From the IMG/VR virus record IMGVR_UViG_2585427776_000008: a stretch of DNA of 5,349 nt; one strand, 5' to 3'. A model generated the notes under the pieces. That model searched no databases. It was not told where the DNA came from and worked only from the letters and a program-made list of their open reading frames with translations. The translations under genes and the position numbers were made by a program. The DNA is from a virus. Its lineage: Duplodnaviria > Heunggongvirae > Uroviricota > Caudoviricetes. Positions 1-5,307 of this stretch are shown piece by piece. Each line of letters opens with the position of its first letter. Positions within the stretch are counted from its first letter, which is position 1.

Positions 1-732
1 TTTTTTCCACGTATCAAGCGTGATAGCACTCGTCACTTTGCATATGGCATTAAATGCCTCCGTTGATGGTAGTCTTTCACAGCCACGACCACCACAACGC
101 TGGCAGTCTCTGATAACAGGCATACCACGTTTTACCGACTCTTCACGATGAATGGCGACACCACGCCCACGGCAATCCTTACAGGCGGTGGAAACCTCAC
201 CCTTTCCGCCACACTCCGGACAGGCAACTTTTACCACCTCCCTGACTTTTTTCCATTCTTCCCAGTAAGACGGATACACACCTTTCGTACACTTTGCCCA
301 TACCGGCGGCTTACCATCCGGATACTGGACCTTGTTTGTAAAAACTACGCTTTCAATAAATTTTTCCCCATAGCAACAAGGGCACTGCTTTTTACTCGCT
401 GCGCTGCGGGCATAATCCTCAAAAGCGTACGAAGCCATAATGCGCATCACTACCGGTTTTATTTCTGCCGGGAGTTTTCTTAACGCCGCCACGCGATCAC
501 ACCGACTGAGTGCATATTCTGTCAGCAATTCTGTTGCCCGCTCTCTGTCATTCATACTAATGCCCATTTTCCCAAGGAACGCAGAAAACCCCATCTCAGC
601 CCGATTCTGTGTCATGCCCTGCGCGGCCATCACATCAGTGATACTCAGCGCATCTTTCGACGTTGAGGCCGATGCATCAGTCAGGCCGGGGGATTTTGGG
701 GAGTAGTATTTCGGTAAATCTTCCAGTTTCAT
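1..732 (-). CDS. Phage late-gene antitermination protein Q (Q82/QuuQ-like family), C-terminal end truncated by the window edge
   Basis: Hand translation of the minus strand from ATG at 732-730 gives 244 codons with no stop down to position 1 (MKLEDLPKYYSPKSPGLTDASAST...). It contains DnaJ-like CxxCxGxG zinc-finger repeats (CPECGGKG, CKDCRGRG, CQRCGGRG). The start overlaps the rusA stop in an ATGA arrangement. Position immediately downstream of rusA matches lambdoid gene order. Family assignment is from memory, not a search. Confidence 0.75.
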   Translation of the reverse strand, partial: MKLEDLPKYYSPKSPGLTDASASTSKDALSITDVMAAQGMTQNRAEMGFSAFLGKMGISMNDRERATELLTEYALSRCDRVAALRKLPAEIKPVVMRIMASYAFEDYARSAASKKQCPCCYGEKFIESVVFTNKVQYPDGKPPVWAKCTKGVYPSYWEEWKKVREVVKVACPECGGKGEVSTACKDCRGRGVAIHREESVKRGMPVIRDCQRCGGRGCERLPSTEAFNAICKVTSAITLDTWKK

Positions 733-1109
733 TTTTTGACCTGCCCTTCAAGCATTATGGGGTAAATCTTCACCCCCAGACGTCCACCAGATACTGGCTG
801 AGCACGAACGATATTGATTTCATCAAACTGCTCATCGTCCATTAGCAACCCCGCATGCGTCAGCGCATCCAGCGGCGCTTTCAGAATATTGTCCAGGTCA
901 CGGCGGCGCTTATCCGGTGGTTCTGCAATAATTTTTATTGCCAACCTTCCGGACAGGCTTAATTTCAGCCGCTGCTGGCGAACAATAAGCGCCACTGCCC
1001 GGCGATAACGCTCCCCGGCTTTTGATACAAAATATGTGCTGCCACGACGACGCCAGTAAGTGTTCACCGTTGGCGGGTAAGGCAAAACAAATTCTATGCG
1101 TTCAGTCAT
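729..1109 (-). CDS. rusA: Holliday junction resolvase RusA (crossover junction endodeoxyribonuclease)
   Basis: 126-aa ORF with the RusA acidic active-site region (PDKRRRDLDNILKAPLDAL) and overall similarity to K-12 RusA as recalled. Start ATG at 1109 directly abuts the TAA stop of the upstream ORF (TAAATG), with a GGAAAG Shine-Dalgarno about 7 nt upstream. Confidence 0.9.
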   Translation of the reverse strand: MTERIEFVLPYPPTVNTYWRRRGSTYFVSKAGERYRRAVALIVRQQRLKLSLSGRLAIKIIAEPPDKRRRDLDNILKAPLDALTHAGLLMDDEQFDEINIVRAQPVSGGRLGVKIYPIMLEGQVKK

Positions 1110-2165
1110 TTATGCTTTCCACTTCAAAACACCCGAATTTCTCGCGTGCATTAAAAAACGAATCAGCAACAACAGTTGGCTGCCGTGTTTTTCTTCAAAA
1201 TCTTTTACCCCGGCGTGTAGTTCGCTATGGCATTTACGGCACAGCGGAATAACAAACAAATCATCAGCCTTTGTTCCCATCCCTCCCAGTCCATGACCAA
1301 TGATGTGATGCGGATCATCTGCCTGATTGCCACACGTCATGCATTTCTGCGTTTTTACCCAACGCGTGTATACAGGCATCTCTTCCCGTTGTGATTTCTG
1401 GCGCTGGAGATACTGAGCCGGTGACTCCGGATCAACGGCAATGCTGACCACCGTCTTTTCCTGTGGCGGGGTTTGCTGGTGGGGGTGAGGCAGCGGCGCA
1501 AGATTTTTTGTGCGCTGCTTCAGTATGCTGGTGGCGGTCTGCTCTCCCGGTACGATGTCGCTTTCACGGTACATTGAGCGGATTTTTTCCGCACGCAACC
1601 CCAGCGAACGACGTAATACCGCTTCCGGTAGCGCGTCCGCCACCTGATTGCGGACCGCCCACCAGGATAATTCAGCCAGCGATAATTCCCGTTCCTGCGA
1701 GCCATTCATTGCATGGCGTATGACGTCAATCATCCATGCAAACAGGTTTTGGTGAGCAAGTTGCCCGAGTGATTCGGAGGTCTGGTCGCGCAGCTGGTTG
1801 TCGCAGTGCCAGCACAACACCATTGCGCCGGTACCATAACGGTGAATGACGGTTTCACTGTGGTGATAATCGCCGTGTGGCCACTGGCAGGATTTAACAT
1901 GGCGCAGTAACCAGTCAGACAATGCGCCAGCGCCACCAGCAGCACGAATCACTCGTTCGTCGCTGAAAAATGGCAGTAATGATTTATCCTCCGCCAGCGG
2001 CTGGCGAACGGCAGGAACGACCCCGGACGGCAGATTACGCATGCTTTTCGGTTCCGGCTCCACCAGTACCCGGGTATTGTGGAATACCGGCATGGATTCA
2101 CGGCCCGGCTTAACGATCACCAGCCCGAGTTCCGGTACCAGAACAGGTCGAAGTAATACCCGCAC
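1110..2165 (-). CDS. DUF968 family prophage protein (YdfU-like) with Cys/His-rich HNH-like zinc-binding motifs
   Basis: 351-aa ORF beginning MRVLLRPVLVPELGL, which I recall as YdfU-like. It has CWHCDNQ and CMTCGNQ...HHIIGH...CRKCHSELH motifs. The start is GTG at 2165-2163, preceded by a strong GGAGG Shine-Dalgarno 5 nt upstream that lies in the end of the preceding ORF. Confidence 0.8.
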   Translation of the reverse strand: MRVLLRPVLVPELGLVIVKPGRESMPVFHNTRVLVEPEPKSMRNLPSGVVPAVRQPLAEDKSLLPFFSDERVIRAAGGAGALSDWLLRHVKSCQWPHGDYHHSETVIHRYGTGAMVLCWHCDNQLRDQTSESLGQLAHQNLFAWMIDVIRHAMNGSQERELSLAELSWWAVRNQVADALPEAVLRRSLGLRAEKIRSMYRESDIVPGEQTATSILKQRTKNLAPLPHPHQQTPPQEKTVVSIAVDPESPAQYLQRQKSQREEMPVYTRWVKTQKCMTCGNQADDPHHIIGHGLGGMGTKADDLFVIPLCRKCHSELHAGVKDFEEKHGSQLLLLIRFLMHARNSGVLKWKA

Positions 2166-2166
2166 G

Positions 2167-2439
2167 TTACCTCCAGATGCGTTGCTGGAATGTGCGGGAC
2201 GGACGCGGTGGGCGTTCAGAGTAAGGAAGCCTGACGGAGATTATCCAGTGACGATAATCGAGGCTGAGGGCTTTCTTAATCTCGTATCCGCGTCTGCGGT
2301 AGTTATGAATTAGCCATTCGGCCTGTTCTTCAGTACATGGTGGGTGTTGGTACCAGTCGGTTTTAAATGCGTGTGAACGCCGCCCATGCCGGATGGCAAG
2401 GTCGGTATCAGAATTGTGAAATTTGGTTTTGTGCGCCAT
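2167..2439 (-). CDS. Hypothetical small prophage protein (90 aa); positional equivalent of rem in K-12 Qin, identity not confirmed
   Basis: Open frame MAHKTKFHNSDTDLAIRHG... with TAA stop at 2169-2167, one nucleotide before the GTG start of the downstream gene (translational coupling). The Shine-Dalgarno is weak and no recognisable motif was found. A candidate promoter (-10 TACAAT at 2491-2496) sits just upstream. Confidence 0.5.
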   Translation of the reverse strand: MAHKTKFHNSDTDLAIRHGRRSHAFKTDWYQHPPCTEEQAEWLIHNYRRRGYEIKKALSLDYRHWIISVRLPYSERPPRPSRTFQQRIWR

Positions 2440-2507
2440 CTGTTTTCTCTGCTGGCGCAGCAGGTGTCAGGTGTTCAGGCTGACGTGCGAATTGTAAACC
2501 AGAATGC

Positions 2508-2548
2508 CAGAAAAAAACAAACCCCGCCGAACCGGGTTAAGTGCGGGT
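2508..2548 (-). terminator. Putative intrinsic terminator at the 3' end of the hok mRNA
   Basis: On the minus strand, a GC-rich stem (CCCGC...GCGGG) is followed by GUUUGUUUUUUU (plus-strand A-run at 2511-2521), about 60-100 nt downstream of the hok stop. Confidence 0.45.
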
Positions 2549-2558
2549 GCGTTGAGGA
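2543..2558 (-). promoter_or_regulatory. fbi-like 3' element of the hok mRNA, complementary to the mRNA 5' end
   Basis: The mRNA sequence here (UCCUCAACGCACCCGC) is complementary to the predicted 5' end of the hok transcript (GCGGGUGCUUGAGG, plus coordinates 2921-2938), with an 8-bp and a 6-bp helix around a small bulge. This matches the tac/fbi long-range pairing described for hok mRNAs. Confidence 0.4.
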
Positions 2559-2606
2559 TGCCTGACACATCAGAGGTGGCGAGGGATTTCTCCCCCGCCA
2601 GGTCTC

Positions 2607-2762
2607 TTACTCCTCAGGTTCGTAAGCTGTGAAGACAGCGACCTCCGTCTGGCCGGTTCGGAGTCGTACCTCGCAGAGGTCTTTCCTCGTTACCAGTGCC
2701 GTCACTATGACGGTTAAACAGATGACGATCAGGGCGATTAACATCGCCTTTTGCTGCTTCAT
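2607..2762 (-). CDS. hok: Hok/Gef family type I toxin (HokD/RelF-like), 51 aa
   Basis: Translation MKQQKAMLIALIVICLTVIVTALVTRKDLCEVRLRTGQTEVAVFTAYEPEE is near-identical to E. coli HokD (RelF) as recalled. It has a single transmembrane helix and a TAA stop at 2609-2607. Confidence 0.9.
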   Translation of the reverse strand: MKQQKAMLIALIVICLTVIVTALVTRKDLCEVRLRTGQTEVAVFTAYEPEE

Positions 2763-2819
2763 AGCCTGCTTCCCCTTGCCTTTCGGCACGTAAGAGGCTA
2801 ACCTACATTTGTGAGACAT
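2607..2819 (-). CDS. mok: mok-like reading frame (in-frame 19-codon N-terminal extension of hok)
   Basis: ATG at 2819-2817 with a GAGG Shine-Dalgarno 8 nt upstream, same frame and stop as hok. This is the arrangement annotated for chromosomal mokC/hokC. Function is inferred by analogy only. Confidence 0.55.
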   Translation of the reverse strand: MSHKCRLASYVPKGKGKQAMKQQKAMLIALIVICLTVIVTALVTRKDLCEVRLRTGQTEVAVFTAYEPEE

Positions 2820-2824
2820 AGATT

Positions 2825-2900
2825 GGGCCTCAGATTAATGTTAAGCGTCTTGCAGGACGCGAAATGTTAACTGGGGCTTTTCTCTATCTGCCTTTCAGTG
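2825..2900 (+). ncRNA. Candidate Sok-like antisense RNA covering the mok translation initiation region (coordinates approximate)
   Basis: Inferred from hok/sok architecture: the region antisense to the mok Shine-Dalgarno and start. A plus-strand hairpin GCGTCTTGCAGGACGC lies at 2845-2860, followed by a T-rich stretch (GGGGCTTTTCTCTATCTGCCTTTC). No strong sigma70 promoter was identified; the best candidate is TTGCCT-17-TAACCT at 2776-2804. Confidence 0.3.
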
Positions 2901-2920
2901 TTCATGCCTGAGACAGATAG

Positions 2921-2938
2921 CCTCAAGCACCCGCAGCC
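2921..2938 (-). promoter_or_regulatory. tac-like 5' element of the hok mRNA
   Basis: The minus-strand sequence GGCUGCGGGUGCUUGAGG resembles the conserved 5' end of hok mRNAs and is complementary to the 3' element at 2543-2558. Confidence 0.4.
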
Positions 2939-2967
2939 ATTCTACTTAACTCACGTCACCTCGCCAA
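2939..2967 (-). promoter_or_regulatory. Candidate sigma70 promoter for the hok/mok transcript
   Basis: Minus-strand -35 TTGGCG (2967-2962), 17-bp spacer, -10 TAGAAT (2944-2939). The predicted start near 2932 would place the tac-like element at the transcript 5' end. Confidence 0.4.
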
Positions 2968-2999
2968 TATGAAATCAATCAGAAAGGTGATCCATAAAA

Positions 3000-3686
3000 T
3001 CACTCCTTCTCTTCTTTTCCGTAGTGGAGTTGGCCAATTTTGATAAGAGGGCGTCCCTGAGATTTGCGGTGTAGATTGGTATCGCGCAGAGAATACACAC
3101 AGCCACAATATTCCTGCTGATAGAATTTTTCGCGCTTGCTGATTTCAATCATACGGGACGAGCCGCCCTGCTTGCGCCAGTTATAATCCCAGTACACCAT
3201 ACCCGGATAATGCGCAACAGCTCGCCGCCCACACTCGTTAACCTGCTGCATATTTTTCCAGCGTGAAATGCCCAGTGAACTGCTGATCACACTGAAACCA
3301 TTTTCAGCAGCGTACAACGCTGTCCGCTCAAAACGCATGTCAAAACACATGGTACAACGGATCCCCCTCTCAGGCTCCCATTCCATTCCTTTGGCACGTT
3401 CAAACCAGTTGTCGGTGTCGTAATCAGCATCGATAAACGGCACGCCGTGTTGTTCAGCAAAGCGAATATTTTCATCCTTACGAATTAAATACTCTTTCTG
3501 AGGATGAATGTTCGGGTTGTAGAAAAAGATGGTGTAGTCGATTCCCGAGGCCTGAAGCGCCTCCATCACTTCACCGGAACATGGAGCACAGCAAGAGTGC
3601 AGTAGTAGTTTGTTTGCCCCGTTTGGGAGCTCCAATTTAGGCCGTTTGAAATCAGCAATAGTCATAAATATTTTTATTGGGGTCAT
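3000..3686 (-). CDS. queH: QueH-like epoxyqueuosine reductase (DUF208 family), putative prophage cargo gene
   Basis: 228-aa ORF carrying the DUF208/QueH hallmarks as I recall them: [35 protein letters not shown] and [12 protein letters not shown] (the Cys ligand set). There are two in-frame candidate starts (ATG at 3686 and 3665), both with weak Shine-Dalgarno sequences. The protein has N- and C-terminal extensions relative to the recalled core. Confidence 0.8.
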
Positions 3687-3862
3687 GAAAATAGCACAGA
3701 GTGTAGCATCAGAGCAGGGCTATCGGGAATATATGTCTAAATCTGGTAATATCTGGTTTTGACGCAAAGCGGACAACCACGCTGGCTCTACCCTGCGCCA
3801 TGAAAATGTCAATTCACATCTGAACTAATGCTCTTTAATCTAGTAACGTCTAAAATACCTAA

Positions 3863-3878
3863 GGAAGGTGCGAACAAG
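3863..3878 (+). repeat. IS5 left terminal inverted repeat
   Basis: GGAAGGTGCGAACAAG; the flanking 4 bp outside is CTAA (3859-3862). Confidence 0.9.
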
Positions 3879-3885
3879 TTCCTGA

Positions 3886-4911
<1,026 letters not shown>

Positions 4912-5042
4912 AAACCGGAAATAACGCCAGAAATGGTGGAAAAAATAGCCTAAATAGGCTGATTCGATGTGTTTGCGGGAAAAAAATCGGCCCAGATCCG
5001 AGAAATTTTAATCAGCGAGTCAGCTTGGGAAGAAATGACCTG

Positions 5043-5058
5043 CTTATTCGCACCTTCC
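5043..5058 (+). repeat. IS5 right terminal inverted repeat
   Basis: CTTATTCGCACCTTCC (reverse complement GGAAGGTGCGAATAAG); the flanking 4 bp outside is TTAA (5059-5062). Confidence 0.9.
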
Positions 5059-5097: not shown

Positions 5098-5155
5098 TTT
5101 CTGGTGACGTTTGGCGGTATCAGTTTTACTCCGTGACTGCTCTGCCGCCCTTTTT
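5098..5155 (+). ncRNA. dicF: DicF small regulatory RNA (Qin prophage sRNA that inhibits ftsZ translation) with its terminator U-tract
   Basis: TTTCTGGTGACGTTTGGCGGTATCAGTTTTACTCCGTGACTGCTCTGCCGCCC followed by TTTTT matches the 53-nt DicF sequence as I recall it. The GGCGG...CCGCC terminator stem is present, and dicB lies about 170 bp downstream, as in the K-12 dicB operon. Confidence 0.8.
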
Positions 5156-5159
5156 AAAG

Positions 5160-5307
5160 TGAATTTTGTGATGCGGTGAATGCGGCTGAGCGCACGCGGA
5201 ACAGTTAAAACCAAAAACAGTGTTATGGGTGGATTCTCTGTATCCGGCGTTAATTGTTAACTGGTTAACGTCACCTGGAAGCACCAGGCACCGCATCACA
5301 AAATTCA
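5160..5307 (+). repeat. Perfect 19-bp inverted repeat (arms 5160-5178 and 5289-5307) enclosing a 110-bp spacer between dicF and dicB
   Basis: Arm 1 is TGAATTTTGTGATGCGGTG; arm 2 is CACCGCATCACAAAATTCA, its exact reverse complement. The spacer contains three GTTAA motifs (5249, 5256, 5264) and a small CCTGG/CCAGG hairpin. Arm 2 ends 18 nt before the dicB ATG. Confidence 0.8.

Follow-up and report, generated by a model that had tools for sequence, protein, structure and literature searches.

Why should the same hok-family toxin gene stand behind a complete regulatory leader in one prophage and directly behind relE, without that leader, in the Qin prophage of Escherichia coli K-12? The question is raised by IMG/VR record IMGVR_UViG_2585427776_000008, a stretch of 5,349 nt of E. 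coli prophage DNA (hereafter the window, meaning the whole stretch analysed), in which queH, a gene for a predicted tRNA-modification enzyme, is followed on the same strand by a hokD-type toxin gene. The first-pass annotation suggested that these two genes replace the relBE-hokD cargo of K-12 Qin at a fixed prophage location. The window is, with high confidence, better understood as the unmodified state of a conserved prophage block with two independent accessory units, queH and a hokD/mokD/sokD locus that is complete as predicted from its sequence, from which K-12 relBE-hokD was derived in two steps. The relBEF operon (relB, relE and hokD) is in turn probably the footprint of a transposon of the ISEsa1/IS1202 family that carries relBE at its right end and inserts specifically at hok-family translation starts, where the insertion duplicates 15-16 bp that include the Shine-Dalgarno sequence, cuts the toxin from Sok/mok control and places it under relBE transcription.

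A probable route from a complete hok locus to relBE-hokD

The comparison with K-12 turns on the following features (positions are those of the window; aa, amino acids; ORF, open reading frame).

3000..3665, minus strand: queH, predicted cobalamin-independent epoxyqueuosine reductase of 221 aa from the RefSeq start; product WP_000150294.1, annotated QueH
2757..2932, minus strand: hok leader (tac, ucb, mok start region and Sok target), Rfam RF01794
2607..2819, minus strand: mok frame, 70 aa, ATG at 2819, in frame with hok and sharing its stop
2607..2762, minus strand: hok, hokD-type toxin of 51 aa, hokD in RefSeq
2761..2775, minus strand: empty ISEsa1-relBE target site, GGGGAAGCAGGCTAT, from the hok Shine-Dalgarno sequence to the AT of the ATG
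1..2439, minus strand: downstream backbone, conserved, assigned with Pfam and PHROGs

In K-12 the order of genes is relB-relE-hokD-rem-(an unannotated homologue of the 90-aa ORF)-ydfU-ydfT, and the order relB-relE-hokD given in the first pass is right when compared with the K-12 annotation. K-12 and the window are 97.4% identical over 265 bp (window 2513-2776), from the terminator to 14 nt before the hok ATG, and the match extends no farther. K-12 hokD consequently retains fbi and the terminator and is without promoter, tac, mok start and sok, which bears out the earlier statement that it lacks regulatory elements of its own. The two hokD genes occupy the same position, as had been supposed, since both are followed by the 90-aa ORF, the DUF968 gene and Q; the hok coding sequence, the 3' untranslated region (UTR) and the terminator are orthologous. 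The difference lies upstream, where K-12 has an ISEsa1-type right inverted repeat and relBE in place of the hok leader. No relBE homology was found in the window and its hok leader is complete, so that the locus is not of the relBEF type. Two papers (PMC12214031, PMC7232551, citing Pedersen & Gerdes 1999) describe K-12 hokD as inactivated by genomic rearrangement, and relBEF is co-transcribed, the relB promoter serving hokD as well (PMC3598666). The status of K-12 hokD as a rearranged remnant has been known since 1999; what the rearrangement was is read here from two other genomes.

The first is the isolated Qin-like phage HannyBb, which carries the queH-hok pair. From ydfT by way of rem to hokD it shares 92.6% identity with K-12 Qin; at the K-12 breakpoint the homology ends, and an intact hok leader and queH follow. 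It also matches K-12 ydfX/dicC at 98%. The second is the Qin prophage of strain 405 (locus L007), which between cspB and ydfW (6.3 kb) shares 99.97% identity with K-12 Qin and retains cro-ydaT-rep-DUF977-queH. After queH come the hok promoter and 29 nt, the KwaA/KwaB genes of a Kiwa system, and a complete second copy of the hok leader; there follow a left inverted repeat, an IS1202-like transposase gene (IS, insertion sequence), ydfW, flxA, ydfV, relB, relE, a right inverted repeat and the hok coding sequence. The K-12 arrangement is that of strain 405 minus 5,955 bp (L007 5372-11326), and the deletion ends lie inside a ydaT-like gene, whose N-terminal remnant is ydfX, and inside the transposase gene, whose C-terminal remnant is ydfW. 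Because HannyBb and strain 405 have queH upstream of the hok leader, and because in strain 405 relBE lies inside the hok locus, queH is not the counterpart of relBE.

In the two-step history that these genomes suggest, an ISEsa1 element of 3.26-3.29 kb carrying flxA-ydfV-relBE would first have inserted at the hok start codon, duplicating 15 bp that include the Shine-Dalgarno sequence. The hok coding sequence would thereby have lost its connection to leader and sok and come to stand directly behind relE. A later deletion of 5,955 bp would then have removed the separated leader, the Kiwa system, queH and the replication genes. Among 5426 complete E. coli genomes, searched at a query coverage of at least 80% unless stated otherwise, relB-relE-hokD is present in 1165 and any part of the relBE element in 1166. 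The junction of hok leader and left inverted repeat persists in 678, and for this reason the K-12-type deletion is a minority form. A junction of queH and Kiwa, in which queH lies upstream of relBE-hokD, occurs in 155. The claim that queH and hok replace relBE-hokD does not survive these counts: the two coexist, in strain 405 and in 155 genomes, relBE having entered as a transposon insertion and queH having been lost from K-12 by deletion. Alignment with K-12 Qin and other Qin-like prophages, which the first pass had proposed, does confirm that the hokD genes are orthologous, but the supposed replacement resolves into two events, a transposon landing in the hok locus and a subsequent deletion. 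It counts against this two-step history that the order of events is reconstructed from present-day genomes.

A probable relBE transposon at hok translation starts

The evidence for a transposon begins with its ends. In strains 405 and EC01307 inverted repeats, TGTTAACACCAAGCTGTAATGTCCCC on the left and GGTGACACTTCTGCTTTGCGTTGACA on the right, enclose the genes from transposase to relE; these repeats are imperfect (19/26 positions match when inverted) and both start with TGT. In hokD the element is flanked by a 15-bp direct repeat, GGAGAAGCAGGCTAT, that runs from the hok Shine-Dalgarno sequence to the AT of the start codon; it stands on both sides of the element in L007 and L019 and on the right side only in K-12, whose 71-nt relE-hokD spacer retains the right inverted repeat and the right copy of the 15-mer. 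In the window the 15-mer occurs once, as GGGGAAGCAGGCTAT (2775-2761), next to the point where K-12 homology ends (2776), and no inverted repeat was found at the hok start. The site is empty, and by its sequence the window hokD locus is an unoccupied target of the relBE transposon. The element measures 3.26-3.29 kb, with flxA-ydfV-relBE beside the right inverted repeat; it lies at 10124-13397 in L007, further copies are found in L019, L020, L021, L022, L026 and L042, and the K-12 remnant is at L002 13274-13314. Its transposase is classed by RefSeq as an IS1202-like ISEsa1 family protein and is intact on plasmids (446 aa), under the same accession as that of plain ISEsa1.

The same element has landed before other hok-family genes. 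IncI plasmids of E. coli and Salmonella carry a 3,288-bp copy, with trbA on one side and a pndA-type hok on the other and with the repeat TGGAGGGGCTATGAT(G), and an IncF plasmid of Enterobacter carries one before an R1-like hok, with the repeat GGAGAAGAAGGCCA(T). A 6,093-bp variant, whose cargo is an IS110-family transposase, cytochrome b561 and a cation-efflux gene, stands before a fourth type of hok with a perfect repeat, GGAGAAGAAGGCCAT. Duplications of 15-16 bp can therefore be seen in four hok-family targets (hokD, IncI pndA, IncF R1-like hok and the fourth type), and since every flanking repeat copies the sequence of its own target, the insertions arose by separate transpositions. One further arrangement stands beside these: on an Enterobacter IncFII plasmid (L024 2187-2253) the relBE right repeat is followed by a 15-bp spacer, GGAGAAGAAGGCCTG, and then by the left repeat of a second, 92%-identical IS copy, a head-to-tail order that suggests, from sequence, a hok-derived site hit twice.

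A species-wide scan, with one genome per species and the last 23 nt of the right inverted repeat as query, returned 22 loci, 19 of them with relBE homology; the three others (L036, L037 and L039, all from metagenome-assembled genomes) contain the 23-mer without relBE homology and were treated as unrelated. In 16 of the 19 the relBE-repeat end lies directly against a gene of the hok family or the start region of one. The hok paralogues involved number at least seven, including a HokE-like type and an MNMKQPRQ type, in prophages, on IncI and IncF plasmids and in several enterobacterial genera, and only the 713-bp relBE-plus-repeat end is constant across species, at 99% identity. The duplications were checkable in the four target types; most species have no more than the 713-bp part in common, and many of the loci end a short way from the match. 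A search of the 5 kb around each right repeat for a left counterpart was unsuccessful.

Two other routes to this pattern were considered and rejected. A single ancient insertion of relBE before hok followed by divergence, and likewise spread by homologous recombination between hok leaders, are at odds with relBE-plus-repeat ends that are 99% identical beside different hok paralogues and with duplications that match their own targets. Two facts nevertheless tell against the preferred reading of relBE-hokD as the product of a transposon insertion. Three of the 19 ends do not adjoin a hok gene: the repeat of L034 lies, inverted, against the leader side, and L035 and L040 gave no intact Hok ORF beside the relBE end. 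Further, plain ISEsa1 has a right end unlike the right inverted repeat that bounds the relBE element. On a Klebsiella plasmid (L023) plain ISEsa1 lies away from hok and without an obvious duplication, so that hok targeting may belong to the relBE-bearing derivatives or to their right end.

Published descriptions give ISEsa1 as 1609 bp, without detectable target duplication (PMC10132070), and it has been reported with no target preference known. A close parallel is the ISAjo2/ISAba32 group of the same family, which inserts at dif/pdif sites and shares TGT-ended inverted repeats of about 26 bp, a transposase with helix-turn-helix and DDE domains, and repeated insertion at one kind of site (PMC10132070; bioRxiv 10.1101/2022.12.17.520857). 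Targeting of Xer sites is described only for that other IS1202 subgroup (PMC10132070; bioRxiv 10.1101/2022.12.17.520857). The relBE element differs in having the start of a hok-family gene, not an Xer site, as its target, in its 15-16 bp duplication and in its relBE cargo. No paper linking ISEsa1, relBE and hok was found in the searchable literature.

Two neighbouring units, hok and queH

The remaining features of the hok locus are these.

2939..2967, minus strand: hok promoter TTGGCG-17-TAGAAT, ending 6 nt before the predicted +1
2511..2932, minus strand: predicted full-length hok mRNA, its 5' end at position 1 of the Rfam model and its 3' end at a hairpin and U-run
2921..2932, minus strand: tac, 5'-terminal element, GGGUGCUUGAGG
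2545..2557, minus strand: fbi, 3' fold-back element, CCUCAACGCACCC
2511..2538, minus strand: hok terminator, AACCCGGUUCGGCGGGGUUUGUUUUUUU, hairpin and U-run
2776..2885, plus strand: predicted sok gene, -35 TTGCCT at 2776-2781, -10 TAACCT at 2799-2804, 17-nt spacer

The first pass had seen here a queH-like gene and a HokD-like toxin with leader, mok frame and 5'/3' pairing elements, and Pfam, Rfam and RNA folding agree with it on each of them and on its place on the minus strand. The leader matches Rfam RF01794 over model positions 1-157 of 157 (120.5 bits against a gathering score of 59, E=5.5e-28), in hok sense orientation and ending at the hok AUG. When 2932->2495 is folded, tac (2932-2921) pairs with fbi (2557-2545) in both the minimum free energy (MFE) and the centroid structure; the MFE is -169 kcal/mol (z=-4.3), and 0/100 shuffles were equally stable. 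Support for the full-length mRNA consists of the Rfam model and this fold. The toxin matches Pfam HOK_GEF PF01848 over profile positions 1-42 of 42 (E=1.6e-22) and PHROG 251, MokW-like (4e-33), with sub-threshold matches only in NCBIfam; it is identical to K-12 HokD at 50/51 residues, the difference being I34L. Public assemblies (L008, L012, L014) call the same 70-aa HOK_GEF product as the mok frame. The candidate Sok RNA, at about 2811-2885, was read from the sequence as a long hairpin (-30 kcal/mol) followed by a U-run, and its placement follows the layout of plasmid R1 hok/sok, which is taken here as the guide.

The locus has close relatives. The hokD/sokD loci of non-K-12 E. coli have the same toxin (at most one residue from K-12 HokD) and the same leader, and those of Stx phages and of phage Rac-SA53 are 92-93% identical and annotated mokW, hok or gef; in the hokW/mokW module of Stx2 phages, however, the locus lies near the genome end, whereas in the window it is beside queH. 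With the hok/sok (parB) system of plasmid R1 it shares the promoter, the tac/fbi fold-back, a mok-coupled hok, a predicted cis-antisense Sok and the terminator. Unlike in R1, the window mok is in frame with hok, as is chromosomal mokC; the location is a prophage and not a plasmid, and the window system is known from its sequence. By homology with R1, the hok mRNA would stay silent through tac/fbi pairing, 3' trimming would activate the stable folded message, and cis-antisense Sok would block the mok-coupled translation of Hok, its pairing leading to decay by RNase III (the R1 mechanism is reviewed in PMC9841398). Carried by a prophage, such a system would help to retain the element or to exclude other phages.

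Whether the locus is active is a separate matter, and several points weigh against its being so. The hok and Sok transcripts, like that of queH, are all predicted; the sok promoter falls below the threshold of the promoter scan and its -10, TAACCT, is weak; and the stem of the hok terminator is weaker than that of K-12, AACCCGCUUCGGCGGGUU. The chromosomal hok loci tested so far gave no post-segregational killing (bioRxiv 10.1101/2025.08.07.668861, citing earlier work), and given that null result the window locus may likewise be functionally quiet. That it is an inactive relic like the chromosomal hok loci of K-12, though seemingly complete, is nonetheless unlikely. The absence of killing, the weak Sok -10 and a terminator stem with a substitution and an extra G would all suit a relic, but all canonical elements can be recognized, with sok as a candidate, the score of the covariance model is double its threshold, the Hok reading frame is unbroken, K-12 HokD, its near-identical homologue, was toxic in a published assay (bioRxiv 10.1101/2025.08.07.668861), and the locus is kept at 90% identity or more in thousands of genomes.

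Two details of the locus are recorded for their own sake. Relative to the K-12 hokD terminator (L002 13025-13060), which has a perfect 7-bp stem and a UUCG loop, the window terminator at 2511-2538 has a C-to-G change and an extra G, and the stem is reduced to 4-5 bp; a stem so weakened may permit read-through towards the DUF968-RusA-Q genes. The codon for Hok Tyr47 lies within GCUUACGAA (window 2619-2627, minus strand) and has the UACG context of A-to-I editing by TadA, which would recode Tyr to Cys. TadA is reported to edit hok mRNAs in this way, K-12 hokD at 6% (PMC12214031).

The other unit is queH. Its longest ORF, 3000-3686, encodes 228 aa from an alternative upstream ATG at 3686. The product matches Pfam PF02677 (QueH, formerly DUF208) over positions 1-174 of 175 (E=1.1e-65), and the solved QueH of Thermotoga maritima, 7LC5, over residues 20-196 (E=7.6e-22). 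To the full-length family match is added the conservation of cysteine motifs: CCAP(C), RC-x2-C and YCGC align with those of 7LC5, and these cysteines bind metal centres in the QueH family. The window protein departs from 7LC5 in its first motif (CCAPC against CCAPD) and in being prophage-borne, in a host that already has QueG, with an activity that is predicted. The QueG of E. coli needs cobalamin, which E. coli does not synthesize de novo. A B12-free Fe-S enzyme such as QueH would let the lysogen complete the synthesis of queuosine tRNA without the B12-dependent QueG of the host. Two points lessen the case for this function, which is predicted from homology: NCBIfam models gave no QueH match, and PHROGs lists the family as of unknown function.

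The two genes are neighbours and, as judged from sequence, not a unit, because hok keeps its own promoter behind unrelated genes and because queH and hok are found apart in many genomes. The promoter scan of 2400-3900 found two promoter-like sites over both strands, of which the hok promoter was the only one on the minus strand; its -10 is kept in hokD loci that follow other upstream sequences (the SIR2-family gene of L019; the second leader copy in L007). The first pass placed a gap of 180 bp between the genes. This holds from the queH stop to the mok ATG, but not for the hok mRNA, whose predicted start at 2932 is 67 nt from the queH stop, with the hok promoter in between. A terminator scan of 2400-3900 made no calls at all, neither between queH and hok nor at the evident hok terminator, and is weak evidence for that reason. 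Read-through from queH into hok on induction is plausible, since no terminator is predicted between them and both lie along the early-right operon. A tighter bond, with queH and hok as one functional transcription unit and hok expression dependent on or coupled to queH transcription, is improbable. The shared strand, the short interval, the missing terminator, the direction of the early-right operon and adjacency in 741 genomes speak for it; against it, the hok promoter is rightly placed to give the conserved 5' end needed for fbi pairing, the leader is far more frequent than queH (3730 genomes against 985), hok occurs behind unrelated genes, and queH occurs without hok in O157:H7 strain Z885, where a restriction-modification (R-M) system stands in place of the hok coding sequence.

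The same census describes how stable the preferred arrangement, two independent neighbours in one block, has been. Among the 5426 genomes an intact hokD-type leader (2757-2999) is found in 3730, this queH in 985 and the pair in 741. The exact QueH protein occurs in more than 25,000 blocks of the assembly collection, and the ten non-redundant contexts returned all read DUF977-QueH-Hok-(0-1 extra ORF)-90/92-aa ORF-DUF968-RusA-Q, although in one (L010) no hok gene is called at the hok position. The ten differ in their repressor/cro, replication and Q types. On sequence grounds the queH-hok pair is a stable block in a mosaic phage population, because the same order recurs across several immunity, replication and Q backgrounds. 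The first pass had itself allowed that queH might be common ancestral content of such prophages, and this is nearly what was found: queH is common and, from the ten contexts and HannyBb, probably ancestral. Taken by itself, the window is unremarkable, since annotated examples of prophage queH and of an intact hokD locus already exist in hundreds to thousands of genomes.

The stretch between queH/DUF977 and hok is, by contrast with that block, variable, so that the idea of modular cargo at a fixed place was right for the sequence upstream of hok and wrong in treating queH with hok and relBE-hokD as mutual replacements. Depending on the genome it holds queH alone, queH with Kiwa, a SIR2-family gene, small ORFs or an R-M system. 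In strain 405 the Kiwa genes (L007 8075-9714) match KwaA at 1e-101 and KwaB at 3e-159 in PADLOC; in O157:H7 Z885 (L005 2978-4988) an NgoMIV-type R-M pair stands in place of the hok coding sequence, with 105 nt of the leader left; and the SIR2-family protein is encoded at L019 6579-7538. Exchange of queH plus autonomous hok for relBE-hokD as alternative cassettes, recombining at one fixed slot, would be in keeping with this mosaic and with the leader fragments on both sides of the Kiwa insert, but it is very improbable beside the presence of both in one prophage, the IS inverted repeats and 15-bp target duplication that bound relBE, and the defined end points of the deletion that cost K-12 its queH. 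Two observations on this stretch may be added. The Kiwa insert is flanked by two hok leaders, partial or complete, with 96% and 89% identity to the window, and in other genomes the stretch hosts defence systems (a complete Kiwa system, R-M and the SIR2-family protein).

Prophage setting and significance

The wider setting is given by the genes on either side.

1-732, minus strand: Q antiterminator, cut by the window end
729-1109, minus strand: RusA (Pfam, PHROGs)
1110-2165, minus strand: DUF968/HNH (Pfam, PHROGs)
2167-2439, minus strand: 90-aa ORF
3863..5058, plus strand: ISKpn26, IS5-like, 1196 bp, with transposase at 3931-4911 (Pfam DDE_Tnp_1)
5099..5150, plus strand: DicF small RNA, Rfam RF00039, 76.7 bits
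5325, plus strand: start of dicB, METLLPNV

All genes to the left of 3863 are on the minus strand and follow one another in the order of transcription as queH (3665/3686->3000), the hok locus (2967->2511), the 90-aa ORF (2439->2167), DUF968/HNH (2165->1110), rusA (1109->729) and Q (732->1). The backbone order of 90-aa ORF, DUF968, RusA and Q is the same in K-12, strain 405, HannyBb and the ten metagenomic or genomic contexts. Window 1-3862 is 99.9% identical to many complete genomes and is E. coli prophage DNA; RefSeq labels in the matching genomes are "hokD" and "epoxyqueuosine reductase QueH". With the same high confidence as the block reading to which this belongs, the region can be placed in the early-right ("nin") part of Qin-like and other lambdoid prophages, with the replication module on one side and the DUF968-RusA-Q module on the other.

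To the right of queH the prophage has been altered. ISKpn26 truncates the 3' end of the DUF977 gene and adjoins the dicF region; its flanks, CTAA and TTAA, are without target duplication. It stands in place of 3,734 bp of an intact prophage (L001 15863-19596), namely DUF977, a replication gene, ydaT, cro, repressor and ydfABC, and because these are missing the prophage is cryptic. In strain DLI.5a ISKpn26 is a simple insertion at the same place in the DUF977 3' end; in the window, unlike DLI.5a, its right end meets TTAA 36 nt upstream of DicF. The dicF and dicB genes are here without their repressor and promoter region and lie downstream of the IS5 transposase gene in the same orientation. Between DicF and dicB (5162-5302, plus strand) there is a sub-threshold match to Rfam STnc100 (38.4 bits against a gathering score of 47, E=7e-6), which spans an imperfect long inverted repeat.

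Two observations concern the hok 3' side. RefSeq places a 59-aa hypothetical protein, WP_001112740.1, at 2386-2565 on the plus strand, opposite the hok 3' UTR and the beginning of the 90-aa ORF; no protein family matches it, and the call is probably spurious. The gap between hok and the 90-aa ORF (2457-2512) is 56 bp in the window and in DP051, is occupied by rem in K-12 (L002 12603-13024), strain 405, N196 and HannyBb, and holds a 98- or 130-aa ORF in some other prophages, making it a second small variable slot. Downstream of Q, related prophages have tRNA gene clusters (Arg, Arg, Ile or Gly, Thr, Ile; L001 9988-10237, L003 1480-1789), which are of interest beside a tRNA-modification gene in the same prophage.

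For the host, a B12-independent QueH on a widespread prophage, in a species whose own enzyme needs B12, amounts to a testable case of lysogenic conversion of tRNA modification. For the hok and relBE families, the comparison turns what had been a vague "major genetic rearrangement" of K-12 hokD into a history of two steps, insertion and then deletion. On the transposon reading relBE, among the most studied of toxin-antitoxin pairs, would be transposon cargo that repeatedly lands on hok-family genes, and this, if confirmed, would represent both a new target specificity for an IS1202-family element and an unusual interplay of two toxin-antitoxin classes.

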